Below, piece after piece: positions 2,139 to 42,424 of a stretch of 64,000 nucleotides of DNA. Made by a program: the position numbers and the translations under genes. The stretch comes from Parcubacteria group bacterium (GTDB taxonomy: Bacteria > Patescibacteriota > Minisyncoccia > Moranbacterales > UBA2206): assembly GCA_041659505.1 (NCBI GenBank), contig JBAZYF010000005.1:57779-121778 (forward strand). Direction: 5' to 3'. The notes under the pieces were generated by a model, which was not told where the DNA came from, ran no database searches, and saw nothing but the letters and a program-made list of their open reading frames with translations. Position 1 is the first letter of the stretch. The number at the start of each line of letters is the position of its first letter.

Positions 2139-2645
2139 ATGGAGAAAAGAGTCCTTTATGTCAAAGACAGCCGGTCTTTTTTTAGCCGGTCGATTTGTGG
2201 CATTGTTAGCCAGATATTTGCTGGCGGGTGGGAGATCGATGTGGTCAAATCTCCGTCCGCGGCGCTTGGGCTTTTAGAAAACAAATCTTACCAGGTTGTA
2301 ATTTGCGATTTCAATTTTGGGAAGCGGGAAATCAATGGTGTCGATTTTTTGTTTCGGGTGAGAGAAGTGAATCGCGACACGGAAACGATCCTTGTTGTCG
2401 GTGAATTTTATCGGCAATCGCCAACTCTAAAAATTGATGAACTGAAAATAGGGCTGGCGGTCGATTTTTTCTGGAAAAAGATCGGAAGAAGTGAGAAGAT
2501 AAGAAAGCGAGGAGAACAAATCCTTGCGCAACTTTTCCAGAAAAACAAAAGGATCAATGCGGCGGGCGTCTTTCACTTGCCGGAGGATCGGGGGAGCTGT
2601 GTCTCAGGGTGTCCGTGTTGTCAGCGGAGAGACGGACATGCCTGA
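2139..2645 (+). CDS. Atypical CheY-like receiver-domain protein with C-terminal Cys cluster
   Basis: Aligns to the CheY fold: YQVVICDFNFGKREINGVDFLFRVRE...TETILVVGE resembles [22 protein letters not shown]...LPVLMVTAE of CheY. The N-terminal acidic pocket is incomplete. The C-terminus is CVSGCPCCQRRDGHA. Confidence 0.45.
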   Translation: MEKRVLYVKDSRSFFSRSICGIVSQIFAGGWEIDVVKSPSAALGLLENKSYQVVICDFNFGKREINGVDFLFRVREVNRDTETILVVGEFYRQSPTLKIDELKIGLAVDFFWKKIGRSEKIRKRGEQILAQLFQKNKRINAAGVFHLPEDRGSCVSGCPCCQRRDGHA

Positions 2646-2801
2646 TGCTTTGTGAAAAATATGCAAAAGGGAAAAAGGTGAACGTGCCTGGTTCCCTTTT
2701 TTCTTTGGGAAAAAAAAGTTGCATAATATTTTGCTGGGTGTATGATAAAAAAATAACAACAAATGTGTCAGACAAACAATCTTTCAATAGGGAGGTAGAG
2801 A

Positions 2802-3004
2802 TGAAAGTAGCTGCGATTTGTGAAGAGTGCAAGGGGAGATGGGGCTGCTATAAGGATGATAGTCTTATAGCGAATGGGCTCTGTTCTTATTGTGAAGCAA
2901 AGGATTGTGTTTATCTGTTCCTTGAAAAATGTACCCATGCTCGTTCGAGCTTGGACTTAAAAAATAAATATGGACAAATGGAAATATTACCGGCGCAATT
3001 GTAA
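2802..3004 (+). CDS. Small cysteine-rich protein (8 Cys in 67 aa), first of three tandem paralogs
   Basis: Internal Met start preceded by the RBS gggaggtagagATG. CxxC-type spacing: CEECKG..C..C..C..C. Confidence 0.45.
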
Positions 3005-3036: not shown

Positions 3037-3243
3037 ATGTTGAAAATGGAAGCGTGTAAGAACTGTTTTGGAAAAACCGGTTGTGTTTATGCTGGTTGTC
3101 TCAAGTCCTGTGTCCATTGTGCGCAAGAGTGTGAGTTTGGACGCGGGATGTGTTCATGCCATTGCTGTGAAAGACCGCCATTTGGCGTATCTTACAAAGG
3201 TTCTAGCGTTTTAGGTTTCATTATGTGGTCGGGTTTCGTGTAG
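3037..3243 (+). CDS. Small cysteine-rich protein (13 Cys in 68 aa)
   Basis: RBS aaagagggggag lies upstream. Sequence CKNCFGKTGCVYAGCLKSCVHCAQECEFGRGMCSCHCC. Confidence 0.45.
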   Translation: MLKMEACKNCFGKTGCVYAGCLKSCVHCAQECEFGRGMCSCHCCERPPFGVSYKGSSVLGFIMWSGFV

Positions 3244-3264: not shown

Positions 3265-3456
3265 ATGCTAAATGTAAAACTTTGTAAAAAGAGGGATTGT
3301 AACGGCCGGATCGGCTGTGAAGAAAATGGCAAGTTGATCGTAACTTGCCATGATTGCCAGGAAAAAAAATGTTCAGCAGGAGTCGCGGAATGTTTCTGTG
3401 ATTATCCAAAGGATTTTCCAAATTTCGCGTACTTCGGCCAGGTATATCATGCTTAG
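3265..3456 (+). CDS. Small cysteine-rich protein (10 Cys in 63 aa)
   Basis: RBS ggggaggttgatATG. Sequence CKKRDCNGRIGCEENGKLIVTCHDCQEKKCSAGVAECFC. Confidence 0.45.
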   Translation: MLNVKLCKKRDCNGRIGCEENGKLIVTCHDCQEKKCSAGVAECFCDYPKDFPNFAYFGQVYHA

Positions 3457-4042: not shown

Positions 4043-4066
4043 ATTTCAGACAAAAAATTGCTTATA

Positions 4067-4129
4067 CCACAAATTTTGCTTTTGTCAAGCCGTTGCGGGA
4101 TTGCGTAATTTTTTACGCGGCAGTATAAT
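4067..4129 (+). promoter_or_regulatory. Conserved operator-like palindrome ACAAA-N7-TTTGT (4069-4085) placed 15 nt upstream of a sigma70-like promoter (-35 TTGCGT 4101-4106, 17-nt spacer, -10 TATAAT 4124-4129); copy A
   Basis: Sequence read directly. A near-identical block CCACAAATTTTGCnTTTGTCAAGCC with the same 15-nt spacing to the -35 recurs at 9331-9392. Confidence 0.45.
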
Positions 4130-4243
4130 CAAAATATAAAATACAATTGAATACTATTTGAGAGACTTTGATCCGCACTGTGAAATGATTTTTTTTCGGA
4201 AATGATTGGTTGCCCAAAGCGCGCGCGGGGAGTTGATTGGCAA

Positions 4244-4304
4244 AACCGGCTTGAATTATTTAGCAATTTTTTTGCTATTTAATTTCAGCCGGTTTTTGTT
4301 TTTT
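4244..4304 (+). terminator. Terminator-like imperfect hairpin (AACCGGCTTGAATT...AATTTCAGCCGGTT) followed by T-runs
   Basis: Sits about 115-175 nt downstream of the 4124 -10 element. This delimits a candidate short transcript. Confidence 0.4.
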
Positions 4305-4417
4305 GAGAAATAAAACTAAAAATGAATCAGATGGAATTATTTTTTCGGGTGAGAAATAATGTTTCCGTTCTCAAGGGCCTGCCAATGGTTGCTACTTTTT
4401 TGTAGTTGCTGTTGGTG

Positions 4418-4477
4418 GGCTTTTTTTGTATTCTACGAATTACCTGCCTATGCTAAAGCTCCGGCAGGCAGGCGAAT
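4418..4477 (+). repeat. Conserved intergenic module T7-GTATTCTACGAATTA-CCTGCCTAT-loop-GGCAGGCAGG, copy 1 of 3
   Basis: Nearly identical to 9850-9910. A diverged third copy lies at 22624-22669. Confidence 0.6.
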
Positions 4478-4587: not shown

Positions 4588-5601
4588 ATGAAAATAATAG
4601 GATTAAAATTAGTTGTTGTGTTGGTTTCCCTGGTTGCTTTGGCGGGGATTTCTACTTATGTGACAAAGGGCTATCAACTGCCGAATATTTTTGGTGGCGA
4701 TAATAACAGCCATGAAGACACGAACGGACACGATGATGGAAATAATAACAACGGAAACGACAAGAAAGAAACAAAGGTTGATTTTAGGATTAGTAGCCAA
4801 TGCCACTATTATAACTATGATCCGCAAAATTCCGTCGCTTTTTCAGGGGGAGATTTGGCGGGATATGTCGATGTTGGATGTTTTTCGGACGGTCAAGCTT
4901 TTGGCAGTTGGCAGGAAACTGGAACGAACCATCTGAATAAATTTTTCAATTTCGACAATATTAAGCCTGGTGACCGCGGTGAAGACGCGATCAGTTTTCA
5001 CATTTTGGGCGATGATGGTTGCGGGCAGATCACTTTTGAAAACATAAAGGATGATGGAAATGATTGCACCGACTCGGAAACTCAGAGCAGTGATCAGGAC
5101 TGCAAAAATAGAACACCGGGAACGCGAGAAAAAAGAGGGGAATTGGGAAAGGCTTTGCAATTTTCTCTTTGGCTGGATCAAGGACGGACGCCGGGCTTCC
5201 AAGGCAAAACTGATCCGGGTGAAGGGGATAATATTTTCAATGAAAAAGATGTTTTGATTTCCGACTGGAAAGATATTCGGGAATTTTCCACAGCTCTTGA
5301 GATCAGAAAATGTTTGCGCCAAGCGCGCAATAAGTTTTTCGATCTTTGCAAATCGGCAGATCCCAATGGGAGCGGGAGAAATACCAAAAAAGGAGTTTGC
5401 GCCGGACTTTCCACCGATGGCAGGATGGTTGATGGAACGGTCTATTATTACGGCCTAGCTTGGCGCTTGCCGGGTGAAACAGGGAATGAAATTCAGTCGG
5501 ACAGTTTGGGATTTGATATGGCTTTTCAAGTAAAGAGCAACAGTCAATGCAGTGTTTGCCAAGGCAAGGATTATGACCATAATGCCAGATGTGATGATTA
5601 G
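4588..5601 (+). CDS. Secreted hypothetical protein (signal/anchor, N/D/G-rich low-complexity region, Cys-rich C-terminal domain)
   Basis: N-terminal hydrophobic segment LKLVVVLVSLVALAGI, then NGHDDGNNNNGND, and multiple Cys downstream. First gene after the long structured intergenic region. Confidence 0.6.
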   Translation: MKIIGLKLVVVLVSLVALAGISTYVTKGYQLPNIFGGDNNSHEDTNGHDDGNNNNGNDKKETKVDFRISSQCHYYNYDPQNSVAFSGGDLAGYVDVGCFSDGQAFGSWQETGTNHLNKFFNFDNIKPGDRGEDAISFHILGDDGCGQITFENIKDDGNDCTDSETQSSDQDCKNRTPGTREKRGELGKALQFSLWLDQGRTPGFQGKTDPGEGDNIFNEKDVLISDWKDIREFSTALEIRKCLRQARNKFFDLCKSADPNGSGRNTKKGVCAGLSTDGRMVDGTVYYYGLAWRLPGETGNEIQSDSLGFDMAFQVKSNSQCSVCQGKDYDHNARCDD

Positions 5602-5776
5602 GATATGGTTAGGGAGAAAATTTTCAAAAACAAGCAATTTTAAGATATGGGGTGAGCTCGGTAACTTCGCCTAAGGCGGACACCGAGGAACAAATTTTTA
5701 AAGGTCGAGAGAGGCAGACTACTCCTGAGTGTCTGGAATAATTAACAATTAATTAACTAGAAATAAACAATAATTT

Positions 5777-9223: not shown

Positions 9224-9330
9224 TCGCCTAAATTTTTCAGCTGGGGATAACTCGCGAGACCATTTTTGTTTTTGCTGTGAGCGAAGAGTAAAAAGCCTCA
9301 ACAGACGCAATAACAGCGCGTATAATTAAA

Positions 9331-9392
9331 CCACAAATTTTGCCTTTGTCAAGCCAAAATTTGCTTGACAATAATTTGGCAATTGATAGAAT
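9331..9392 (+). promoter_or_regulatory. Conserved operator-like palindrome ACAAA-N7-TTTGT (9333-9349) 15 nt upstream of a strong sigma70-like promoter (-35 TTGACA 9365-9370, -10 TAGAAT 9387-9392); copy B
   Basis: Same architecture as 4067-4129. Confidence 0.45.
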
Positions 9393-9533
9393 AAAAACAG
9401 AAAGAAAAAAAATTACCAAAATACAGTTGAATAGTTATTCCTGATTTTCGAAAAATCCTGTTGCGTTTATTATTTTATAACAAACGGAGTATGGAGAAAA
9501 AAATGAAAAAATTTGTGAATATTGTTAGTGCGA

Positions 9534-9570
9534 ACCAACTTTGAGCAGTCTGCTTTGAGTTGGTTTTTTT
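9534..9570 (+). terminator. Terminator-like hairpin CCAACT...AGTTGG followed by T7
   Basis: Sits about 140-175 nt downstream of the 9387 -10 element. Confidence 0.4.
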
Positions 9571-9849
9571 ATAATCCGATTCGAATCTACGAATGAATGC
9601 GAATCTACGAATAAAAGAATAAAAGAATAAAATGCAAATTTAAATAGTGGGTGAGGAAAAATAAAAATAAAAAAGGTACCAAAAATAAAAAGTTGAAAAA
9701 GGAGGAATAACGTTGAAGCTGTAGTTTTACATAATGCTAAAGAGTTAGTCGGTGATGATTTCTTGAAGCCAATTTGGTCGCTTGTTTCCGTTTTTGGCGG
9801 AATAAGTTTCAGGAAGGAGCCAATAGCGAAACCGGACTGCGGGTCAGTG

Positions 9850-9910
9850 CCGGTTTTTTTGTATTCTACGAATTACCTGCCTACGCTAAAGCTTCGGTAG
9901 GCGGGCAAAT
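9850..9910 (+). repeat. Conserved intergenic module T7-GTATTCTACGAATTA-CCTGCCTAC-loop-GGTAGGCGGG, copy 2 of 3
   Basis: Matches 4418-4477 at about 52 of 57 nt. The stem differences (T to C on one side, C to T / A to G on the other) still allow pairing. Confidence 0.6.
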
Positions 9911-10160
9911 ATATGAATGAATAAAAAAAGTACTTTGAGATTTTTTTGGAAAGTCGACCACTTCTAGTCAGGGAAAATTTAGCTGACTTGTGGTGGCTGG
10001 CTTTTTGGATAAGCGGTTATAATTTAGGCCCCCTTTTCTTAAGGGGGCGTGCCCTCCGGAAACGGGAGTTTAAATCAAAGTTTGCTTATCATGGAAAGTA
10101 TATCTCGTCACTTTTTGGCTAGTTAAGAAAAGTGACACCAGAGATCAGCTAGAAAGAGAG

Positions 10161-20729: not shown

Positions 20730-21002
20730 TAAAAAAAGCGTCTTTTAGGTGATGAGCAAGTGACCGGTTACGCCACTGACTTCCCGTGGTTCAAGGCGTC
20801 CAAAATAAGGACCACGGTTCAACGTCTTCACTAACTCTAAAAATTAAAATCTTAGGTACTTGGTTCACATTATAGTTATTTTCCCTTTTCTGTCAATTTT
20901 TCCAGCGCCTAGACAAGTATTGGCTTGAAATAAGCTTATTTAGTGCTAGTATTTTTTAGACATTTTTCAAAAAAAAGAAATTTTTGGTCATTTTTCATCC
21001 GC

Positions 21003-21037
21003 GCTTGCCAAAACTGTTCATTTGTGCTAGAATAATA
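21003..21037 (+). promoter_or_regulatory. Sigma70-like promoter (-35 TTGCCA, 17-nt spacer, -10 TAGAAT)
   Basis: Reads cgcgcTTGCCAaaactgttcatttgtgcTAGAATaat, about 130 nt upstream of 21164. Confidence 0.35.
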
Positions 21038-23707: not shown

Positions 23708-24853
23708 ATGTTTGATTTTAATTTCAAAAAAAACGTATTCCTCGGAATTGATATCGGTACGGCTTCCGTGAAGATTGTTGAGCTTAAGATAGTAGATGGA
23801 AAGACAATCTTATCTAACTATGCCTGGATGCCACTTGGCGGAGATATTTTGGGAAAAAATAAGGCGGATGCGGATTATCTGCAGACTGTCCTGCCTCAGT
23901 GTATCAAGAAAATCATCAAAAAGGCGAAGATTTCTGGAAGAAATGCCTATGTGTCTTTGCCGGCTTTCGGTGGACTCATTGCGCTTATTGATTTTCCTGA
24001 GATGGCTGATGGCGATATGGAGCAAGCAATAAAGTTCGAAGCGCATAAATATGTGCCAACATCGCTTGATGAGGTTGTGATCAGTTGGGAAATCGTGGAA
24101 AGGGGAACTGGTGCGGTCACTGAGATGCCTCAAGAGAAGGACTTTTTAGGGGCTCCGTCCGGCAAGAATGTTGATTCGGGAGAAAAGATCAAGGTGTTGC
24201 TTGTGGCTGCTTCACGGAAGAAAGTTTTGTGTTATGAAAATTTGATCAAGGCGTCTGGATTGAGTTTGCGTTCGATCGACATCGAGACTTTTTCCATCGT
24301 TCGTTCGCTCGTCGGCAATGATTTGGGTAATTTCATCATCGTAGATATCGGGGCACGGGTTTGTAATATTATTTTAGTTGAGAAGGGCATAATCAGGATC
24401 AATCGCAATATTGATGCAGGGGGGATAGAAATGACTAAGACGATTGCCAAGGCAATGGGGATTGATTTTGAGAGAGCAGAGGCACTGAAAGTTTCTGGTA
24501 GGGATTTTTTTGCTGCCGATTCGGCTATCAGTTTTTTTACATTGGAACTTATCACGGGCGAGGTAGAACGGATAATCCGTACCTGTCATAAAGATGGAGA
24601 GCAGAATACCCCAGACAGGCTGATCCTATCTGGCGGGACGTCAAAGTTGGTCGGTATGGGGAAATATTTTTCTGATAAATTGCAGATAGAGGTGGTTATT
24701 GGCAATCCTTTTGCGCGGATTAGTTATGACAGCAGATTGGAGCCTTCTATCTCTAATATTCAAAATAATTTTGCGGTAGCTGTCGGATTGGCGTTGAAAG
24801 GAGTGGAGGAGTATCACAAAAAGGAACTAGTTAAGAAAGTAATTTTAAAATAA
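23708..24853 (+). CDS. pilM: Type IV pilus assembly protein PilM (actin-like ATPase)
   Basis: FLGIDIGTASVKIVELK...IVDIGARVCNIILV...ILSGGTSKLVG. An extended -10 gTGgTATAAT lies at 23656-23664. Confidence 0.8.
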   Translation: MFDFNFKKNVFLGIDIGTASVKIVELKIVDGKTILSNYAWMPLGGDILGKNKADADYLQTVLPQCIKKIIKKAKISGRNAYVSLPAFGGLIALIDFPEMADGDMEQAIKFEAHKYVPTSLDEVVISWEIVERGTGAVTEMPQEKDFLGAPSGKNVDSGEKIKVLLVAASRKKVLCYENLIKASGLSLRSIDIETFSIVRSLVGNDLGNFIIVDIGARVCNIILVEKGIIRINRNIDAGGIEMTKTIAKAMGIDFERAEALKVSGRDFFAADSAISFFTLELITGEVERIIRTCHKDGEQNTPDRLILSGGTSKLVGMGKYFSDKLQIEVVIGNPFARISYDSRLEPSISNIQNNFAVAVGLALKGVEEYHKKELVKKVILK

Positions 24854-24928
24854 ATTTAAACATCCTGCTGAGTCCCGCTGGCCGGGAATCGTCCTTGTGG
24901 GGACGAATCTGACAGGATAAAAATAAAA

Positions 24929-25441
24929 ATGGCAAATATAAATTTGGTCACCGACAAGGAAGAAACCAAAATGATGGGAATGGGCACTAGCGTTCTTCTC
25001 GCTGTGTTCTTTCTGGTCATTTTAATTTATTGCGGCTTATTTTTCTATGGGAAAAAGCTGAGCAAGGATACTGATGCTCTGACTGCCGCATACAGCGCTA
25101 AGCGTAGCAGTTTTATTGTTGGCGATTCAAAGAGGGTGTTAGATTTTCAAAATAGACTATCGATTTCGAATGATCTTTTAGCTCAAGAGCGCAATGCCAA
25201 TCAAAACGTGGTAAAAGTGGAAGAATCGATGATTGCCGGCGTCTATTTGAGCGCCTACGAATATGATGACGACACAAAAGCAATCACGCTTGATTGCTAT
25301 GCGGATAATTATGAGATGGTCGCTAAACAGATCTTAAGTTTTAAGAGCTCTGATTATTTTACATCTGTTCTTGCGGGAGAGAGTGAATTTGACACGAGGC
25401 TTAATAAGATTAGTTTTACGGTTGTTTTAAAAATTAAATAA
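24929..25441 (+). CDS. pilN: PilN-like bitopic pilus assembly protein
   Basis: Single N-terminal TM segment, then a periplasmic domain. Placed between pilM and pilO. Confidence 0.55.
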   Translation: MANINLVTDKEETKMMGMGTSVLLAVFFLVILIYCGLFFYGKKLSKDTDALTAAYSAKRSSFIVGDSKRVLDFQNRLSISNDLLAQERNANQNVVKVEESMIAGVYLSAYEYDDDTKAITLDCYADNYEMVAKQILSFKSSDYFTSVLAGESEFDTRLNKISFTVVLKIK

Positions 25442-25447
25442 AAAAAT

Positions 25448-26242
25448 ATGAAAATAAAAATATTACTCGCCCCGTCGCTGATCGTTTTAATAATAGTAAC
25501 AATTATTTGGTACGCCTATCCGGCTTATACTAACGGAGTCGATGGCGTCAAGGAGAGAAGCGAAAAATTGGTCCAGCAAGAAAGTCTGATGTCGGGTCTG
25601 GATGGTCGCATCAGCAATGCCAATAAATTAGTGGCAGATCTGGATTCTAATTCCTTCGAAAACTCAGTTGTTTTTAATTATGTTCCAGTGAATACGGAGG
25701 AAGAGAAGATTATTGATAACCTGAATTCTTTAGCAAAGAACAATGCCTTGTCCGTGCTTAATATTTCAGTTTTTCCGGAAAAAGAAACTGCCGTAGTGGT
25801 GCCGACTATCGATGCTAGTGCTACTAGCTATCTCCCTGTCTCTGGCAATGCGGGGGCTCCTGCTCCTGTGACGCCGAAGGCGGTGCCAAAAAATTTGGAA
25901 GTGAATTTTTCTGTACTGGGGGAATACGAAAATATAAAAAGTTTGCTCGGAAAAATTCAGAAGCTGAAAAGATTTGACAAAGTTTCTGCACTGACAATAA
26001 AGACACTGATCAATAGCGATCAGGTCGTGAGCGCTTCACTGCAAGCAGATATTACTTTGGAATTTAATTATCTCGATGAGCTGAAGAGGTTGGCGGATGG
26101 GGATATTGATAATGACATCTTCGTCAGGGGAGCTTTTGATAAGCAGGTGATAGGAAAAATTAAAGATAGTCGCAACATCGATGTTAACAATGTTCTTCCT
26201 GGCGAAAGAGGTGGGAACAATCCTTTTAATGTCGCAAAATAA
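25448..26242 (+). CDS. pilO: PilO-like bitopic pilus assembly protein
   Basis: N-terminal TM segment, coiled-coil region. Position within the operon. Confidence 0.5.
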   Translation: MKIKILLAPSLIVLIIVTIIWYAYPAYTNGVDGVKERSEKLVQQESLMSGLDGRISNANKLVADLDSNSFENSVVFNYVPVNTEEEKIIDNLNSLAKNNALSVLNISVFPEKETAVVVPTIDASATSYLPVSGNAGAPAPVTPKAVPKNLEVNFSVLGEYENIKSLLGKIQKLKRFDKVSALTIKTLINSDQVVSASLQADITLEFNYLDELKRLADGDIDNDIFVRGAFDKQVIGKIKDSRNIDVNNVLPGERGGNNPFNVAK

Positions 26243-27912
26243 TGACCAAAAAAGTGGCGGAGAAAAACGATGGAGATCTGAGTGGCGATGTTCCTGCCGG
26301 ACAGGGAATCAGTCAGAATCTTTTGCGTGAGGTGCCGAAGAATATTCCGGGCAATGTTGTCAACATAATTCCCAAAGAAGTAGCTGAGAAATATGGCATG
26401 ATGGCTTTTGAAAAATCAGAAGGCATCTTGAAAATTGCCATGCTTTATCCGGAAAATGTTGAAGCGCTCAATGCTTTGAATTTTGTGGCAGAAAAAGAAA
26501 AGGCAAGAATTGAAACATACGCTGTTTCTCCTGATATTTTCTCTGGCCTGTTTGTTTTATACAATGAAACTAATGAAGCATTGAAGGAAGCGGTGGATTC
26601 TTTTGAGGACGAAAAATATCGGATGGATGTTGATGACAGCGGAAAGAGTGATAAAAAAAAAGAAAAGGAGATTCTGAAAGATGCTCCTGTGACCAAATTG
26701 GTAGAGGTGGTTATCAGTCATGCCGTGGAAGGAAAGGCAAGCGATATCCATATTGAGCCAATGGACAAAGACTATCGAGTGCGTTTCAGAGTGGATGGAG
26801 TGCTTCATGTCAGCTTGATTTTTCCACTTGAGATTGGGCCAGTGGTGATTTCTCGGATAAAGATTTTGGCAAATCTAAAAATTGATGAAAAGAGAAAGCC
26901 CCAGGATGGAAGGTTCCGGCTAAACTTCAATAAGAAGGACATTGATTTTCGCGTATCCTCATTGCCTGTGGTCGGTGGAGAAAAAATTGTGATGCGGATT
27001 TTGGACAAAGATGGCGGCACGGGCAGTATTGATGCTTTAGGGCTGGTAGGAAGAGCGAGGACCGATATTGAAAAAGCCATCCAGGAAACCTATGGAATGA
27101 TTCTGATGACTGGTCCGACAGGCAGTGGAAAATCAACCACCCTTTATACGCTGTTGAAAATTCTAAACAATGAAGAGCGAAATATTATCACGCTGGAAGA
27201 TCCAGTCGAGTACTTTATCGAAGGGATGAATCAAAGCCAGGTCAAGCCGGAAATCGGCTATACTTTTGCTTCAGGGCTCCGTACAGTTTTGCGTCAAGAT
27301 CCAAATGTGATTATGGTGGGCGAAATCCGTGACGGCGAAACTGCTGAACTTGCTGTGCATGCGGCGCTCACAGGGCATCTGATGTTTTCCACCTTACACA
27401 CAAACACGGCAATTGGCGCTATTCCACGTCTGATCGATATGGGCATCGAGCCCTTTCTTCTCTCTTCATCGTTACGGATGGTAATTGCACAAAGATTGGT
27501 GCGTCGGATCTGTGAAAAGTGCAAAAAGGAAAAAGAAATTTCTGCTGTTGTTGGGTCCAGGATAATAGATAAAATTAAAAATATTTCCGCTAAACAAGTA
27601 GAAGATTATGGAATTAACCTAACTGATGGGGTCAAGTTTTATCATGGCGAGGGATGTGATGCATGCAACGGGACAGGACTGAAGGGCCGGGTGGCTATTT
27701 ATGAAGCAGTGCCAGTGACGGAAGCGATAAAAAATATCATTATTGAAAAAAGAGGAAGTGAGGAGCTGATAAAAAAAGAACGTGATCGGATGGGAGTTCT
27801 TACGATCGAGCAGGACGGAGTCTTGAAGATTCTAAAAGGCCTCACGACGATCGAAGAAGTGGAGCGGGTTACTGAATGTAATTTTACCACGCTAGAGGAA
27901 GCTAATGATTGA
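26242..27912 (+). CDS. pilB: Type IV pilus assembly ATPase PilB (GspE family)
   Basis: N-terminal GspII_E_N-like domain, Walker A LMTGPTGSGKSTTLY, Asp/His boxes, and a tetracysteine CEKC...CDAC. Confidence 0.85.
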   Translation: MTKKVAEKNDGDLSGDVPAGQGISQNLLREVPKNIPGNVVNIIPKEVAEKYGMMAFEKSEGILKIAMLYPENVEALNALNFVAEKEKARIETYAVSPDIFSGLFVLYNETNEALKEAVDSFEDEKYRMDVDDSGKSDKKKEKEILKDAPVTKLVEVVISHAVEGKASDIHIEPMDKDYRVRFRVDGVLHVSLIFPLEIGPVVISRIKILANLKIDEKRKPQDGRFRLNFNKKDIDFRVSSLPVVGGEKIVMRILDKDGGTGSIDALGLVGRARTDIEKAIQETYGMILMTGPTGSGKSTTLYTLLKILNNEERNIITLEDPVEYFIEGMNQSQVKPEIGYTFASGLRTVLRQDPNVIMVGEIRDGETAELAVHAALTGHLMFSTLHTNTAIGAIPRLIDMGIEPFLLSSSLRMVIAQRLVRRICEKCKKEKEISAVVGSRIIDKIKNISAKQVEDYGINLTDGVKFYHGEGCDACNGTGLKGRVAIYEAVPVTEAIKNIIIEKRGSEELIKKERDRMGVLTIEQDGVLKILKGLTTIEEVERVTECNFTTLEEAND

Positions 27913-27953
27913 TTTTTAATTTAATTTTTCTAAGTTGATTTGTTTACAGCTAT

Positions 27954-28343
27954 ATGGAAGAAAGCAGGAAAAAAATAATGATTATCGAGGATGATTATTT
28001 TGTGCTCGATATCTATCACACAAAGCTGACCCAAGAAGGCTTTGAAGTGCTTGATGCGAAGGATGGCGGAGAAGGATTGGAGAAATTGCGGACACAAGAA
28101 AAACTTCCCGATCTGATCCTTTTGGATATCATCATGCCAAATCTGGGAGGATTGGACGTCCTAGGCGCAATCAAGCAGGATGAGCGTTTAAGGAATATTC
28201 CCATAATCCTTCTGACCAATTTGAGCCAGAAGGATGAAATAGATAAGGGATTGGAGTTGGGAGCGACTGATTACCTGATCAAATCGCATTTTACTCCATC
28301 GGAAGTCCTGGAAAAAATTAATAGTGTGCTTAGTAAAGCTTAA
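27954..28343 (+). CDS. Single-domain response regulator embedded between pilB and pilT
   Basis: KIMIIEDDYFVLDIY...LILLDIIMPNLGGLDVL...ILLTNLSQK...GATDYLIK. Confidence 0.8.
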   Translation: MEESRKKIMIIEDDYFVLDIYHTKLTQEGFEVLDAKDGGEGLEKLRTQEKLPDLILLDIIMPNLGGLDVLGAIKQDERLRNIPIILLTNLSQKDEIDKGLELGATDYLIKSHFTPSEVLEKINSVLSKA

Positions 28344-28347
28344 AAAT

Positions 28348-29418
28348 ATGCTACGAACAGAACAGAAAGTAAAAAATTTACTTCGGATTGCTGCTCAGCG
28401 TGGAGCATCCGATTTGCATCTGGTGGTTGGGCGTTATCCGACGTATCGGATCGATGGGCGGCTTTATCCGCTCAACCAAGATACAATTCTCACTCCTAGC
28501 GCGACTAAAGAAATTTGTGAGGTCGTTCTGGATGAAGAAAAGAGGAAAATTTTAGAAAAAGATGGGCAAGTCGATCTTTCCTATAATTTTGAGGATAAGG
28601 TACGTTTTCGGGTCAATGCTTTTATCCAGCAGGGCTATACTAGTATTGCTTTTCGGCTTATTCCCAGAGAAATCAGAACGCTGGAAGAATTGGGCGTGCC
28701 AGAAATGCTGTATGATTTTACGACAGTGTCTCAGGGGTTATTCTTGATGGTTGGGCCAGTGGGGCATGGAAAATCAACTACTCTGGCGGCAATGCTCGAT
28801 CACATCAATCACAACCAAGAAAGGCACATTCTCACAATTGAAGATCCGATCGAATATATCTATGAACAGGATCGCTCAATTATCAACCAGCGGGAAGTTT
28901 TCCAAGACACGGATTCTTTTCAGGGAGCGCTTAAGGCGGTTTTTCGCGAGGATGCTAATGTGGTGCTTATTGGTGAATTGCGGGACTTGGATACGATTGC
29001 TACCGCAATGACGGCAGCGGAAACAGGGCATCTGATCTTTGCTACCTTGCACACCAACGATGCTCCGCAGACGATTGATCGGATCGTGGATGTTTTTCCG
29101 GCTCACCAGCAAAATCAGGTACGTTCGCAATTGGCCAATGTGCTTTTGGCTGTAGTTTCTCAGCGACTGATGACGCGTGTGGACAAGGGACGGGTTCCGG
29201 CGATCGAGATAATGATTAAGAATCATGCCGTGGAGAATTTGATCCGGGAGAATAAAAGCTATCAGATCGGCAATGTTATTGAGACCAGTTCGCAAGAAGG
29301 TATGGTCACGATGGATAAGTCTCTGGCTGATCTGGTGCGCAGGGGCCTAGTTTCTCTGGAGGTCGCCACATCTTATGCGCGTGATCAGAAAAATTTTGAA
29401 ACACTATTAAAATATTAG
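28348..29418 (+). CDS. pilT: Twitching-motility/retraction ATPase PilT
   Basis: Walker A LFLMVGPVGHGKSTT, then ILTIEDPIEY and GHLIFATLHTN. A start at 28348 avoids overlap with the upstream gene. Confidence 0.85.
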   Translation: MLRTEQKVKNLLRIAAQRGASDLHLVVGRYPTYRIDGRLYPLNQDTILTPSATKEICEVVLDEEKRKILEKDGQVDLSYNFEDKVRFRVNAFIQQGYTSIAFRLIPREIRTLEELGVPEMLYDFTTVSQGLFLMVGPVGHGKSTTLAAMLDHINHNQERHILTIEDPIEYIYEQDRSIINQREVFQDTDSFQGALKAVFREDANVVLIGELRDLDTIATAMTAAETGHLIFATLHTNDAPQTIDRIVDVFPAHQQNQVRSQLANVLLAVVSQRLMTRVDKGRVPAIEIMIKNHAVENLIRENKSYQIGNVIETSSQEGMVTMDKSLADLVRRGLVSLEVATSYARDQKNFETLLKY

Positions 29419-29435
29419 TCCATTTTTAGAATTAG

Positions 29436-29450
29436 TGGTATAATAAAAAT
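29436..29450 (+). promoter_or_regulatory. Extended -10 promoter (TGgTATAAT) ending 6 nt before the pilC ATG: candidate leaderless transcript
   Basis: Reads agTGgTATAATaaaaatATG. No SD sequence is present. Confidence 0.35.
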
Positions 29451-30659
29451 ATGAAATTTAAATTCAAAGCCAAAACAAAAACAGGAGAAACTAGTGAAGG
29501 TGTGGTGAACGCAATGAATAAAGACGCCGCCGCCGCTATTTTGCAAAAAAACGAACTCTTTCCGATCAATATTCAGGAAGAGAGTGAGAATGAGTTGATG
29601 AAAACTATCAATAAATATTATGACAAGGTGACGGATAAGGACTTGGTAGTTTTTTTTCGCCAACTGGCAATTCTCATCGAGGCACGCGTTCCGATTGTGA
29701 CGGCTCTCACTGCTATCAGCGAGCAGACGAGCGGTAATTTTTTGAAAATTATCTTGTCCGAGGCAATCAAGGACATCGAAGATGGCGTGACTCTCTCCGA
29801 CGCTTTTGCTAAGCATATGGATGTCTTTTCCACCCTATCCATCAATATCATCAAAGCAGGAGAGGCTTCAGGTAATTTGAAAAAATCTGTCGAATATGTA
29901 GCGGATAATATTGAACGGAACTATGAATTGACCAGCAAGGTTAAGTCGGCCATGATGTATCCAGCTATTGTTTTGGTGGTGTTTTTTGTGATCGGTTTTT
30001 TGGTGATCACGCTCATTATTCCAAAGCTAACAGTGATGATTAAAGATCTGAACGCGGAAGTGCCATGGTATACAAATCTGCTTATCAATATCGGTGATTT
30101 TATGGCAGTTTATTGGTGGGCAGTCTTGGTGATTATTTCTGGGATAGTTGCCGGCATCGTTTATTACATGAGCACGGTTGATGGCAGGAGAGAGTGGGAT
30201 CAGATTAAATTAAAATTACCGATCGTGGGCGTGATGTTCCGCTATATATATATCACCAGGTTTTCTGAAAATTTGCAGGTTCTTTTAGCAGGAGGGATTC
30301 CTATCATTAAGGCGCTTACAATCGTGAGTGCTGTTATTGGCAATACCGTCTATGAGGAATTGTATCTGCGGACAGCGGAAAATGTGAAAAGAGGACAGAA
30401 TATGAGCGATATCTTAACTCGGAGTCCGCTTATTCCGCCAATGGTTTCGCATATGATAAAAATCGGAGAAGAATCAGGACAAATTGATTCCGTGCTCGGA
30501 CATATTACCAAGTTCTATGGGCAAGAGGTGGAGCTGATGGCCAAAAATATGTCTACGCTGATTGAGCCGATCTTGATGATCCTGATCGGTCTTGGTGTTG
30601 GCCTTATGGCGGTCGGAGTTTTGATGCCAATCTATAATATTGCCGGTCAGATTAAATAA
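29451..30659 (+). CDS. pilC: Type IV pilus platform protein PilC (GspF family)
   Basis: Two T2SSF repeats, three TM segments, and the conserved GEESG near the C-terminus. Confidence 0.85.
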
Positions 30660-30675
30660 AAGCAAGAAGTGTGAT

Positions 30676-31107
30676 ATGATATCAAAAGGAAAAAACATAG
30701 GGCAGGCGCAATCAATGCTTAATGATAAGAACTATGGTTTCACACTGATTGAGCTTCTGGTTGTGATTGCGATTATCGGAATTTTAGCCTCCATTGTGTT
30801 GGTCAGCTTGAACAGTGCCAGAGCTAAGGCGAAACAAGCTGAGTTTAAATCTGGAGTATCAAGTTTGAAATCTGCCTATCTCAGTGAGTGTAGTGATTCA
30901 CTCGGAACAACAACTGCCGTGACTCCACCACCTTCTGTTCAATCCCCGGCCTTTACGGATGAAGAGTGCGATGGAGATGGTGGGTTTTTGGATGCTATTA
31001 AGGTGACTCCGACTGATATTAGTGGTGTTCCAGCTACGTGCAAGGGAGCGACGATTACTGTTGAAGGTGCTGATTTCACTAGCGATCCTGATTATTCCTG
31101 TCCCTAA
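30676..31107 (+). CDS. Type IV pilin (prepilin with G|FTLIELLVV class III signal); the true start may be 30715 (MLNDKNYG|FTLIE)
   Basis: Reads [35 protein letters not shown]. Confidence 0.75.
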
Positions 31108-31263
31108 AAAAGATTATTGACTGATTTAATATAGGAATAATCTTGCCAGATCCGGCGCAGCCGGTATCCGCCTAAAACGGAATTTGGCAGGAAAAATAAA
31201 CACTTGGCAAAATCTCGAGTACTCGAGATGGCGCGAGGTAAACTAGAAGGAGAGGTGAAAAAA

Positions 31264-31737
31264 ATGAATACAAATAAAAAAGGTTTTACATTGATCGAAC
31301 TTTTGATCGTTATCGCGATCATCGGTATTTTGGCTTCAATCGTGTTGGTCAGCTTGAACTCAGCTAGAAATAAAGCTAACGCTGCAGCTATGAAATCATC
31401 GCTGTCATCATTAGCCTCAGGAGTGACATTGTGTTGCGATACAACTACCAACACGCTCTACGCAGGCGCTGGAGGCGCAGGTACTGATTTGTGTGTAGGT
31501 ACTGCTATCGGATCTGCTATGCCAGATACTCTTGATTTGAAGTTGGGTGCCTCAGGTACCGTAGCCTATACAGCACCAGCTGCTGGAAATTGTAATACAG
31601 CGACACCTTATATGGTAGCTACTGTTGATAATAGAAATAACACTGCTTGCTCAGGAACCTATTACATTTCTCCAAGTGGAATCAGGAATGGTGGTGTTTA
31701 TCCTGGAACGAATAATGGTTTTCCATCAGGATGCTAA
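31264..31737 (+). CDS. Type IV pilin (second major-pilin-like gene)
   Basis: RBS gaaggagaggtgaaaaaaATG. Reads MNTNKKG|[31 protein letters not shown], with a Cys pair in the C-terminal domain. Confidence 0.75.
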
Positions 31738-31928
31738 GCTGATTGAAATTTTCTTTGCTTGCCAATCTGCATATGCATTGGTTGGCGATAAGATCAAAGA
31801 GGGTAAGTTTTGCGACTTGCCCTTTTGGTTTTTTTGGCGAAGTAAGCTGTTGTATTTATTCTAAGCCGATGATATAATAAAAACATAAAGACAAGTCTTA
31901 ATCTCCGATTCTCTAAAATATACTTATT

Positions 31929-32720
31929 ATGCTTATCATCTTTTTTCTTTTTGGATTGATCATCGGCAGTTTTCTCAATGTGGTAGTCTATCGCATCAGG
32001 ACGGCCGAAACGATTTTGGGGCGGTCGCATTGCGCGCATTGTAAGAAAATGATTCATTGGTATGATAATATTCCGCTAATCAGTTTTGTACTTCTAAAAT
32101 TCAAGTGTCGAGAATGCGGGGAAAGAATTTCTTGGCAGTATCCACTAGTAGAATTTTTTACCGGCATTGCGTTTATGCTTTTGGGTGGAAAGTTTTTTGT
32201 CTTAACTGATTCGGCTACTTGGTTTTTTACTTTCTATTATCTCACAATTGTCTCCGCGTTGATCGTTATCCTTATTTATGATTTGCTTTATTTGGAAATT
32301 CCCAGTATCGTGCTTTGGACAACGGTCGGTTTTGCTATTTTTTGCAACCTCTTGATTGATTTTCAAATGGCGAATTTTAATGGCAGTATCCTGAATAATT
32401 TGACTTATTCCGGTACGTTGGCTGCTTTTGTGGCGTTCATATCCTTTTTCCTGCTATCTTCTCTTTCCAGGGAAAAGTTTATGGGAATGGGCGATGCTTT
32501 TTTGGTCATTCTTATCGGATTGGTTTTGGGCTGGCCCAAAATTCTCTTGGGGCTGTTTTTGGCTTTTGCAATTGGGGCGATTTGTGGTATAGTTTTAGTG
32601 AGCCTGAAGAAGAAAAAAATGGGCAGTCAGATTCCTTTCGCTCCATTTTTGGCCGTGGGAGCAATCATTTCGATGCTTTATTACACACCTATCGTTAGTT
32701 GGTATTTGAAATTTTTCTAA
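31929..32720 (+). CDS. pilD: Prepilin peptidase PilD (A24 family) with N-terminal zinc-binding CxxC...CxxC
   Basis: LIIGSFLNVVVYRI...CAHC...CREC, multiple TM segments, and catalytic Asp residues in the membrane domain. Confidence 0.8.
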   Translation: MLIIFFLFGLIIGSFLNVVVYRIRTAETILGRSHCAHCKKMIHWYDNIPLISFVLLKFKCRECGERISWQYPLVEFFTGIAFMLLGGKFFVLTDSATWFFTFYYLTIVSALIVILIYDLLYLEIPSIVLWTTVGFAIFCNLLIDFQMANFNGSILNNLTYSGTLAAFVAFISFFLLSSLSREKFMGMGDAFLVILIGLVLGWPKILLGLFLAFAIGAICGIVLVSLKKKKMGSQIPFAPFLAVGAIISMLYYTPIVSWYLKFF

Positions 32721-33212
32721 ATGATGCAAGATAAACTAAAAATAAACAGAAAAAAGAGGCAGAAAGGTTTCACTTTTGTTGAGGTGATAATTGTGATTGG
32801 TATTGTTGGAATCATGCTTTCAATCGGGTTTGTTTCTTTGCGGCCAGCTCAGGATTTAGCTAAACTCAAGGCGGCACAGTCGGAAGTGGCGGCGGACATC
32901 AAGCAAGCGCAGAGTAACGCCTTGCAGGGGAAAATGACAGGAGGATCCGTGCCGAAATATTATGGAGTGCGCTTTAATGCTGATGGGAAAACCTACTATC
33001 TCTGCTACAGTAATATTCTAACTAGTTGCAATAATATTATTTATACGCAAAAGTTAAAAGACGGGGTCGCTTCTAATGCTGGCGGAAAAATGATGATGTT
33101 TGATGTTCCGAACGGAAATTATAAGTCTGCTGCTTTAGTAATAACCTTTACTCTTAATACAAAAACAAAAACTGTGACAATTGGAGCAAATGGATCAATT
33201 GCGCAAAATTAA
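32721..33212 (+). CDS. Minor pilin / pseudopilin (KG|FTFVEVIIVIGIVGIMLSI)
   Basis: Class III signal peptide with Glu at +5. Confidence 0.6.
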   Translation: MMQDKLKINRKKRQKGFTFVEVIIVIGIVGIMLSIGFVSLRPAQDLAKLKAAQSEVAADIKQAQSNALQGKMTGGSVPKYYGVRFNADGKTYYLCYSNILTSCNNIIYTQKLKDGVASNAGGKMMMFDVPNGNYKSAALVITFTLNTKTKTVTIGANGSIAQN

Positions 33213-33221
33213 GTTGAAAAA

Positions 33222-33794
33222 ATGTTGAAAAAAAACAAGAAGCACAATTATGCCGGTTTTTCTTTCATGGAAGTGATGCTTTCAGTGGCAGTCCTGTCGA
33301 TCGGTGTCATGGGTGTTTTGCCGCTTTTTACTTCCGCACTGAGACAGTCGCTTGACAGTCGCGATCAGATTATTGGAGCTATGCTTGCGCAAGAGGGAGT
33401 AGAATTGGTACAAAATCTTCGGGATAATAACTTTAAAAATAGAGTAGATGCATTTTCTGGGGCATTTCCTGCTGATGATACCGTTAATTGTCGGATTGAT
33501 TTTCAGTCTGCATTAGACTGCTCATCGACATTGTTTAGACTTTATGCTGATAATGTGACAAATTTCTATAAACATTCAACAACTTCCGCAACAATTACAA
33601 AATTTCGAAGAAGAGTAAATATAGACTACTCGCTAATTGACGGTTCTGATTCAGATGCTGAAAATGCCGCAAAAGCCAAGGTCTATGTCACTGCGGGTTG
33701 GGGGGCCGCTGGACTGCCCAGTTCTCCTAATTCTAGCAATTGCAATACCAATAATAAATGCGCTTTTGCTATTGTAACGTTAACAAAATGGTAA
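33222..33794 (+). CDS. Minor pilin (PilV-like; YAG|FSFMEVMLSVAVLSIGV)
   Basis: Prepilin-type N-terminus. Confidence 0.55.
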   Translation: MLKKNKKHNYAGFSFMEVMLSVAVLSIGVMGVLPLFTSALRQSLDSRDQIIGAMLAQEGVELVQNLRDNNFKNRVDAFSGAFPADDTVNCRIDFQSALDCSSTLFRLYADNVTNFYKHSTTSATITKFRRRVNIDYSLIDGSDSDAENAAKAKVYVTAGWGAAGLPSSPNSSNCNTNNKCAFAIVTLTKW

Positions 33795-34348
33795 AAAAAC
33801 TAAAAAAGGGCAGGAAAAATTATTATGGTTTTTCAATGTTGGAAGTAATGATTTCCGTTTCTATTTTTACCGTGGTGATTTTTGCTGTGACTGCTACTTA
33901 TGCGAGAACTTTTAGCGCTGGCCAGAAAAGTCGCATCGTGCAGCGTAATATGGAAGCAAGTCGCACAGCTATGGAAGCTATGGCTAAAAATATGCGGATG
34001 AGTACTAAATTAATGGTGGATGCGACCAAAAAGACAGTAATAATGTTTAATAATTCTCAAGCCACATGCATCAGATATAGCTTTACTGGAGGGAGCCTGA
34101 CAAGTCTTTTTTATCCTTCAGATCCAGCCTACTCGCCAGGTGATTTGGAATATCCCGATTGTAGTACGGCCAGCGGGACTCCGACTGAGCTAATTTCTGC
34201 GGATGTGGATGGAATTTTTGAGGTTACGCCGACTTCGGCTACTCCCAAAGTCGTAGGCAAGGCAACTGTCCTACTCAATATTGGCAATGGTGTGGATGCC
34301 CAGCATATCCAAACCAGTATTTCTTTCCGAGATTTTGACTACGAATAG
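33788..34348 (+). CDS. Minor pilin (PilW-like; YYG|FSMLEVMISVSIFTVVI)
   Basis: Prepilin-type N-terminus. Start placed at the internal Met at 33788. Confidence 0.5.
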   Translation: MVKKLKKGRKNYYGFSMLEVMISVSIFTVVIFAVTATYARTFSAGQKSRIVQRNMEASRTAMEAMAKNMRMSTKLMVDATKKTVIMFNNSQATCIRYSFTGGSLTSLFYPSDPAYSPGDLEYPDCSTASGTPTELISADVDGIFEVTPTSATPKVVGKATVLLNIGNGVDAQHIQTSISFRDFDYE

Positions 34349-42297: not shown

Positions 42298-42424
42298 AAA
42301 AATTGTCATAACAAAAACGAAGGGAGTGTGGATAAAAATTCACCCTCCCTTTAATATTGTATAAATTTTCAAAATGTAGTATTATTTAGGCACAAAAAAT
42401 AAACAATAAAACTATAATTGCCAC

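Follow-up and report, generated by a model that had tools for sequence, protein, structure and literature searches.

Two surface-protein operons in the 64-kb window, the whole stretch of DNA that we analysed, may be controlled at two levels. The first would be a conserved DNA element that lies upstream of each promoter and binds a protein, and the second would be a set of mRNA leaders carrying c-di-GMP riboswitches. We rank this reading above a divergent or docking promoter, and our confidence that it is correct is about even. In this arrangement, the promoters would start long, multimodule mRNA leaders rather than free-standing small RNAs. One leader would precede a camelysin/TasA-like and SipW operon, and the other an operon for DUF11/LPXTG adhesins and a sortase.

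A 25-nt block, CCACAAATTTTGCYTTTGTCAAGCC, lies at positions 4067 to 4091 and again at 9331 to 9355. It is absent elsewhere in the window, even with three mismatches allowed, and it had no match in 100 shuffles. Chance is no explanation for the duplicated block. An earlier, sequence-only reading had placed a block of 26 nt at these two loci; its positions are right and its length is one too many. The repeat grows to 30 nt when its left flank is counted (TTAWACCACAAATTTTGCYTTTGTCAAGCC, repeat family D14). As that reading had also reported, both copies contain the inverted repeat ACAAA-N7-TTTGT, which occurs in the window at these two places only (expected number, 0.2). The distance from the end of TTTGT to the -35 hexamer is indeed fixed, at 15 nt in both copies, and the GCC end of the block is 9 nt from the -35 in both. 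The promoter of the window's canonical c-di-GMP-II riboswitch is preceded by a third, diverged copy, which stands 25 nt before its -35. The features are collected in Table 1.

Table 1. Predicted regulatory features of the two loci and of the third element copy (positions in the window)
Feature	Position	Strand	Details
Upstream promoter element, copy 1	4062..4091	+	TTATA + CCACAAATTTTGCTTTTGTCAAGCC; 26/26 identical in L002
Forward promoter 1	4101..4129	+	TTGCGT (weak -35, 3/6) - 17 nt - TATAAT (4124-4129)
5'-leader motif AAAATACAATTGAATACT	4138..4155	+	Second copy at 9418-9435
c-di-GMP-II-class aptamer, hairpin inserted in P2 loop	4150..4264	+	Pseudoknot strands 4208-4214 and 4239-4247
Intrinsic terminator (expression platform)	4239..4304	+	5' arm is the aptamer's pseudoknot and P1 3' strands
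Second attenuator module: GGGTGAGAAA box and long intrinsic terminator	4347..4427	+	Conserved in 9 loci
Upstream promoter element, copy 2	9326..9358	+	TTAAA + CCACAAATTTTGCCTTTGTCAAGCC + AAA
Forward promoter 2	9365..9392	+	TTGACA (9365-9370) - 16 nt - TAGAAT (9387-9392), extended -10 TG
Shine-Dalgarno GGAGTATGGAG and 13-codon ORF MKKFVNIVSANQL	9486..9544	+	Stop codon within the stem of the terminator that follows
Intrinsic terminator ending the first unit of locus 2	9532..9570	+	From folding
Second c-di-GMP-II-class aptamer, best by c-di-GMP-II-GAG	9739..9848	+	Pseudoknot strands 9776-9782 and 9825-9833
Terminator overlapping the 3' strands of aptamer 2	9830..9860	+	From folding
Perfect promoter TTGACA-16-TATAAT and canonical c-di-GMP-II riboswitch	20753..20896	-	Upstream of a CAP-domain secreted protein gene
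Diverged third copy of the element, GCACTAAATAAGCTTATTTCAAGCCAAT	20919..20946	-	PWM match 16.9 bits

We scanned genome and metagenome collections for exact patterns, and a Candidatus Moranbacteria genome (L002; also L010 and L011) matched. Orthologous operons were then fetched via the signal peptidase, and the element was found in five further loci (L013, L017, L026, L027, and L029). The resulting set holds eight copies from seven loci, and three of the copies are nearly identical. The strain variants L014, L016, L018, and L022 were identical to their partners and so uninformative. In L002, the block is conserved at 26 of 26 positions, and the proteins that this genome shares with the window are 31 to 57% identical. 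These 26 nt are the longest exact match between the 64-kb window and L002; the next best is 17 nt of coding sequence. The L002 block follows a terminator and precedes a promoter, a leader, a camelysin-like gene, and then SipW, an operon of the same camelysin/TasA-like and SipW type as that in the window. The flanks of the element cannot be aligned between loci. Matches in other phyla (L001, L003, L004, L008, L009, and L012) were ordinary promoters or chance and have no bearing on conservation.

The pattern TTA-N3-CA-N-A-N2-TTTT-N3-TTTGTCAAGCCAA is kept in at least seven of the eight copies, and the flanks and centre vary. By this comparison, the element is a conserved putative upstream promoter element of about 33 bp that is under constraint. 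The sequence-only reading had taken the palindrome for a shared transcription factor site. The block together with its promoter is indeed under selection, but the palindrome is not the conserved feature. It is kept only in the two window copies and L002, and nearly in L026, and dyad symmetry is not conserved among the orthologous sites. The left arm has become ATTAA in L013, ATATT in L017 and L029, and ATAAT in L027, and in these same four loci CA...TTTGTCAAGCCAA is invariant. The right arm lies within the invariant TTTGTCAAGCC.

On the forward strand, sigma-70-type promoters are predicted at both window loci, and equivalent promoters accompany all eight copies of the element. Forward promoter 2, with its extended -10 TG, matches the consensus at 11 of 12 positions in a scan. 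It is homologous to the promoter of the L002 operon, and its spacer is conserved between locus 2 and L002. Forward promoter 1 has a perfect -10 and was not listed by the consensus scan. A good -35 had been claimed for both loci; this is true of TTGACA at locus 2, but TTGCGT (4101 to 4106) fits TTGACA at only three of six positions. The spacers of 17 and 16 nt to TATAAT and TAGAAT were correctly described. The downstream genes had also been credited with promoter-like elements of their own. The scan does not bear this out. From the hairpins up to the start codons (4588 and 10161), it lists nothing promoter-like on the plus strand, and there is just a lone TATAAT near 10019, without a -35. With no forward promoter between leaders and genes, both genes would most simply be served by the upstream promoters.

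The element has the same orientation relative to the forward promoter and operon in all eight copies, and it is always upstream. Distances from the block to the forward -10 fall into classes of 30 to 32, 42 to 44, and 54 nt, which are about 12 and 11 bp apart. Between the element and the -35 there are 8 to 9 bp, and in relatives about one or two helical turns more. This constant orientation, the distance classes, and the weak -35 of promoter 1 favour a role of the element in forward initiation. Class I upstream activator sites of sigma-70 promoters, such as those of CRP at -61.5 and -72.5, offer a known parallel. They resemble the element in lying upstream of the -35 in a fixed orientation, in their distance steps of about 11 to 12 bp, and, for copy 1, in the weak -35. 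The 12- and 11-bp steps are roughly helical, although the first of them is explained by the insertion of another motif, TGTGGATAA. Unlike such sites, the element has no conserved dyad, a symmetry expected of many operators, and its sequence is unrelated to CRP and FNR sites.

A further observation speaks against a transcription factor site, and it supports the main alternative. On the opposite strand, the invariant letters spell GGC-TTGACA-AA...N...-TG, in which TTGACA matches at six of six positions and TG follows exactly 13 nt later in all eight copies. The invariant letters therefore coincide exactly with opposite-strand sigma-70 contacts in eight of eight copies, and for a transcription factor site this would be so only by coincidence. 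The alternative is that the block is a minus-strand sigma-70 promoter (GGC-TTGACA, a 16-nt spacer ending in TGn, and a -10) that stands back-to-back with the forward promoter. It might fire a short upstream or antisense transcript, or it might bind RNA polymerase and so compete with or couple to the forward promoter. As in back-to-back divergent promoters, a consensus -35 and an extended -10 TG face away from the forward promoter, and in the window the two -35 hexamers are 13 bp apart. An Oscillospiraceae genome (L001) holds an identical 21-mer that is followed by TATACT and, 17 nt further on, by a tRNA gene, so that the sequence is a real tRNA promoter there. TATACT, CATAAT, or TAAAAT stands at equal spacing after the 21-mer in L001, L003, and L004. 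On these parallels, the 21-mer can plausibly act as a promoter core. The -10 of copy 1 is TATAAG. The third copy is a real back-to-back case, because its opposite strand carries TTGAAA-16-TAGTAT with TG, a promoter listed by the scan that faces gene 21164, and this keeps the divergent alternative alive. Since the spacer of the forward promoter is also conserved between locus 2 and L002, spacer conservation alone is no argument for a transcription factor.

The -10 region speaks against a divergent promoter. The minus-strand -10s are TATAAG, TTTAAT, TTTGAT, CGTAAG, TCAAAA, CATAAA, CATAAA, and TTTAAT. The -11A and -7T are the most important positions of a sigma-70 -10. Each is present in three of the eight minus-strand sites, but the middle -10T, -9A, and -8A are kept, which is the reverse of the sigma-70 pattern. 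The forward promoters, by comparison, have -7T in eight of eight and -11A in seven of eight. The spacer and flanks of the block are better conserved than its -10, which is unusual for promoters. The minus strand downstream of the block has neither an ORF nor a conserved RNA and holds just the convergent terminator of the upstream gene, which any transcript would meet. The main copies and their relatives thus differ from known divergent promoters in having a poor -10 and no divergent gene. We consider the divergent promoter a serious but somewhat unlikely explanation.

A search for the regulator gave no candidate DNA-binding protein near the loci, and no regulator gene is conserved beside them. 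The genes around them encode receiver-only response regulators or are small Cys-rich ORFs. The neighbouring small proteins were rejected as regulators, because they lack a Pfam DNA-binding domain and are not conserved from locus to locus. An FleQ-like enhancer-binding protein adjoins a sortase in L023 and was rejected as well, its homologue being absent from the window. Several known site types were compared with the block and set aside. For a sigma-54 promoter (TGGCAC-N5-TTGCW), the block offers TACCAC or AACCAC-N5-TTGCT; the -12 part fits, but the invariant GG at -24 is absent. The AAC of an ECF-type promoter (AAC-N16-GTC) is not conserved, and an IHF site (WATCAANNNNTTR) fits poorly. For a MerR-type long-spacer promoter, the -10 candidates at 18- to 19-nt spacers never have -7T. 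OmpR- or LytTR-type direct repeats were excluded, as there is no second repeat at 10 to 11 or 21 nt. A DnaA box, TTATNCACA, occurs in nine related loci, but at the two window loci it is not intact (TTATACCACA and TTAAACCACA).

The second level of control would reside in the leaders. A permissive Rfam search assigned positions 4152 to 4260 to the c-di-GMP-II family (RF01786) at 23.7 bits (E value, 0.012; gathering threshold, 53.5), and positions 9739 to 9846 to c-di-GMP-II-GAG (RF03169) at 30.7 bits (E value, 8e-4; gathering threshold, 40). Homologues of the locus 1 aptamer were found in leaders of the same operon in L013, L017, and L025, with clan scores of 28 bits for L013 (against 53.5) and 31.3 bits for L025 (against 40). 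Neither window variant reaches its gathering threshold, nor do L013 and L025, and this counts against the riboswitch part of our reading. The low scores result from an extra P2-loop hairpin and weak P1 matches. At 4152 to 4260, the P2 loop has 44 nt, compared with 20 in the model, and the extra insertion holds the hairpin. The canonical c-di-GMP-II riboswitch of the window (20753 to 20838) scores 60.2 bits.

We built a covariance model, R1, from four variant sequences only (the window aptamer at 4150 and those of L013, L017, and L025). R1 retrieved the canonical riboswitch at 26.3 bits (E value, 3e-4) and found the element at 9739 to 9848 at 14.3 bits. In an alignment of six sequences, pairing holds for 94.3% of nested cells, and in 12 of 15 pairs both sides have changed, counts that are to be read with the caveat that the six RNAs were fitted to the model. 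None of 500 shuffles reaches this level of nested pairing, and slid controls are 29 to 44% paired. The class-defining pseudoknot is paired at six of six positions (four of four plus GG:CC) in all six RNAs, with compensatory changes at two positions, U-A to C-G and C-G to U-A. Its strand pairs are GGUUGCC/GGCAAAACC, GGUUGCU/AGCAAAACC, GGUCGCC/GGCGAAACC, GGUCGCU/AGCGAAACC, and GGACGCC/GGCGUAACC.

The window aptamers share with the c-di-GMP-II and c-di-GMP-II-GAG families (clan CL00127) a P1, a short helix, and a P2. They also share the junction letters GA...UGA, GGAG, and AACCG, and the same covarying pseudoknot between the P2 loop and a 3' strand, which flanks two bulged purines. They differ from the clan in the 3' strand of the pseudoknot, which is GCAAAACC or GCGAAACC instead of GUGCAACC. 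Because GCAAAACC replaces GUGCAACC in a strand of the binding site, another ligand is possible. With an inserted hairpin and an extended pseudoknot, these variant RNAs might also sense something other than c-di-GMP.

Folding confirmed that the terminator hairpins of the sequence-only reading are real, at 4239 to 4304 and 9532 to 9570. Minimum-energy folds place 4239 to 4265 and 9830 to 9841, which are 3' strands of the two aptamers, in terminator stems. The aptamer 3' strands are thus shared with the terminator 5' arm and a U-tract follows, as in terminating riboswitches of the ON type. Since the 5' arm of the terminator is made of the aptamer's pseudoknot and P1 3' strands, a bound ligand, presumably c-di-GMP, should block the terminator and allow read-through. 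We therefore read unit 1 (4136 to 4304) as a predicted c-di-GMP-II-class riboswitch leader. The second attenuator module that follows it has a 24-bp stem with 14 covarying pairs.

The leader of locus 2 is built differently at its start. The riboswitch lies 340 nt further downstream, outside the interval that had been proposed as a transcript, and the first unit (9399 to 9570) folds no better than shuffles (z, -1.4). Rfam searches of this unit, and likewise of the GGGTGA module, gave nothing credible, and BLAST of the unit, with its 13-codon ORF, and of the distal leaders against all fetched loci found no homologue. Within unit 2, the ORF (9503 to 9544) begins with an ATG that GGAGTATGGAG precedes by 7 nt, and its stop codon is at 9542 to 9544, inside the stem of 9532 to 9570. 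This anatomy suggests a leader-peptide attenuator, in which translation to the stop would leave a ribosome sitting on the terminator's 5' arm, and transcription could then read through into the aptamer region. The proposal is a subhypothesis that concerns this first unit, and two-level control can accommodate it. We regard it as unlikely, as neither the ORF nor the unit has a homologue in any fetched locus, and chance short ORFs are common in A/T-rich leaders.

These properties of the two leaders bear on the proposal that a palindromic operator serves two promoters, each producing a free-standing noncoding RNA of about 165 nt. Promoter and terminator are present at both loci, and the shared motif AAAATACARTTGAATAST near the 5' ends is real and unique to 4138 to 4155 and 9418 to 9435. 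A related A-rich ACAAT(T/A)G(A/C)ATA comes directly after the promoter in L002, L013, and L017, and therefore the 18-nt motif appears to belong to the transcript start. However, this motif is all that units 1 and 2 share, and beyond it the intervals are not homologous. Searches for homologues retrieved unit 1 from three genomes (L013, L017, and L025), always as a leader of the same operon, and unit 2 from none. Unit 1 consists of an aptamer of a known clan and an expression platform, and unit 2 is an unrelated sequence whose short ORF runs into the terminator. Both leaders contain further conserved modules before the genes, with no forward promoter between units and genes, and the palindrome is not conserved. 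The proposal of a noncoding RNA pair is largely refuted, and we consider it very improbable. A functionless remnant of a segmental duplication finds some support in a second repeat (4421 to 4477 and 9854 to 9910, 91% identical), which indicates common ancestry of the two leaders, but we give it practically no credence because full identity in L002, whose proteins are only about 55% identical, unalignable flanks, and the core in five more loci exclude a neutral remnant of the element.

Secreted or surface proteins are encoded around both loci. Genes between 4588 and 9128 encode a secreted protein, a camelysin/TasA-like protein, a SipW-type signal peptidase, and an Ig-domain protein, and those between 10161 and 20151 encode small secreted proteins, DUF11/LPXTG giant adhesins, and a sortase. 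A protein of a "Parcubacteria group bacterium" MAG matches the signal peptidase at 100% identity, and its relatives at 45 to 65% identity come from Moranbacteria, Pacebacteria, and Parcubacteria. The source is an uncultured bacterium of Parcubacteria/Moranbacteria type. CAP-domain proteins are encoded in the window as well, and so is a type IV pilus cluster, in which the PilB-like ATPase bears an MshEN domain. MshEN is a known c-di-GMP-binding domain, and its presence makes c-di-GMP signalling plausible here. At the first level of control in our preferred reading, a DNA-binding protein on the element would set initiation. It would probably aid RNA polymerase at promoter 1, because the -35 there is weak. 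At the second level, the ligand would decide whether a started transcript is extended into the genes.

The Bc2 c-di-GMP-I riboswitch of Bacillus thuringiensis provides an experimentally demonstrated case of the same logic, in which a terminator represses the gene for a collagen adhesion protein until c-di-GMP allows read-through (PMC4933901). Like the leaders described here, Bc2 is a 5'-leader ON switch with a cell-wall-anchored adhesin as its target (PMC4933901). It differs in its aptamer, which is of class I and not class II, and in coming from another phylum, and the mechanism proposed for the window follows from strand overlap alone. In full-text literature searches, no paper connected c-di-GMP riboswitches with Patescibacteria or Parcubacteria.

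The window's pairing of a camelysin/TasA-family protein with a SipW-type signal peptidase recalls tapA-sipW-tasA, the biofilm matrix operon of Bacillus subtilis, which is regulated by SinR, AbrB, and Spo0A. Within the element, TTTGTCAAG resembles the Spo0A box, TTTGTCRAA, and is noted as no more than a lead. The SinR operator (GTTCTYT) is absent, and neither the window nor the fetched loci showed a gene for Spo0A, SinR, or AbrB. We know of no riboswitch control in the tapA-sipW-tasA operon of B. subtilis.

A more speculative possibility joins these lines. The element could be a promoter core without a working -10 that docks RNA polymerase holoenzyme, or a lineage-specific transcription factor mimicking sigma-70 contacts, and that, pointing away from the operon, thereby tunes the forward promoter. 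Together with the variant riboswitches, it would form a lineage-specific two-tier circuit for surface-protein operons. We think this quite unlikely.

For the general reader, these are a promoter region and riboswitches, known kinds of things, and the parts themselves are of known kinds: sigma-70 promoters, a conserved upstream element, and c-di-GMP-II-class riboswitches with terminators. The novelty lies in the sequence of the element and its unusual conservation pattern, a wrong-strand promoter core without a proper -10; an aptamer variant of the c-di-GMP-II class that current Rfam thresholds miss; and the setting, upstream of TasA-like/SipW and adhesin/sortase operons in candidate-phyla-radiation bacteria. 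These bacteria cannot be grown alone and have few recognisable regulators, and to our knowledge almost nothing is known of their transcription control. Here, c-di-GMP-type riboswitch leaders are tied to a short DNA element whose conservation exceeds that of the proteins beside it. The adhesin, sortase, and TasA-like matrix operons behind it make up a testable candidate regulon through which these episymbionts may control their surface.

The leaders carry a second conserved module, in which a long intrinsic terminator (AGAAAGCC...GGCTTTTTT) follows a GGGTGARAAA box and which recurs in the fetched loci of related genomes (table). The terminator stem is 24 bp long and shows compensatory change in 14 pairs. 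The module had no match in Rfam; we suggest that it may serve as an attenuator. In the closest relatives, TGnAAKYAT lies before the box, and this sequence could alternatively be an extended -10.

Each of the two leaders in the window also contains, after a terminator, a 57-nt repeat, and the copies are 91% identical. Within it, (C)TACGAAT repeats flank a CCTGCC...GGCAGG hairpin. In another genus, a related copy is located between a terminator and the extended -10 promoter of ispH/lytB. Just upstream of the camelysin-like genes, at about 50 to 70 nt from the start codon, AAAGGTCGARGG is conserved together with a small hairpin after it. No obvious Shine-Dalgarno sequence precedes these genes.

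In nine related genomes, the camelysin/SipW operon promoter has a DnaA-box-like nonamer (TTATNCACA; TGTGNATAA on the other strand) upstream of its -35. This nonamer occurs in either orientation, at a distance of 6 to 9 nt (21 nt in L015). The nonamer is missing at the two loci of the window and in L002, L027, and L029; the single window copy is upstream of a histidine kinase gene.

Positions of the features in the window and in related loci
Feature	Window	Related loci
GGGTGARAAA module	4347-4427	L002, L013 (two copies), L015, L017, L019, L023, L026, L027
GGGTGARAAA box, further copies	9649-9660; 5650-5655	
57-nt repeat	4421-4477; 9854-9910; also 9586-9612	L025 10908-10965
AAAGGTCGARGG motif	5700-5711	L002, L013, L015, L017, L019, L021, L023, L026, L027
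DnaA-box-like nonamer	42327-42335	L013 4823-4831; L015 4829-4837; L017 ~4657-4664; L019 4866-4874; L021 5273-5281; L023 ~4557; L024 ~5542; L025 ~5287; L026 ~4818
Second promoter facing gene 21164 (+)	21001-21033	
Cysteine-rich ORFs (119, 68, and 63 aa)	2645-3004; 3037-3243; 3265-3456	
Type IV pilus cluster	23708-34348	
Element + promoter		L027 3640-3750; L029 290-350

The product of gene 21164 is a receiver-like protein of 113 aa that has a weak FleQ-N match. Another forward promoter, the second (TTGCCA-17-TAGAAT with TG), faces this gene; its opposite strand resembles the block (CACAAATGAACAGTTTTGGCAAGCGC), the conserved upstream promoter element. A complete type IV pilus cluster adjoins the sortase/adhesin region and encodes PilM, PilO, PilB with an MshEN domain, a receiver protein, PilT, PilC, five pilins, and PilD. 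The MshEN domain is known to bind c-di-GMP. Between two receiver-only response-regulator genes lie three small cysteine-rich ORFs with many CxxC pairs. None of the three matched Pfam; a weak similarity links two of the three.

Loci L027 and L029 come from two strains with an identical SipW protein. In only one strain is the camelysin leader immediately preceded by the element and promoter; the other strain has them in front of an inserted caspase-like (Peptidase_C14) gene. The element and promoter thus travel as a module with the operon start.
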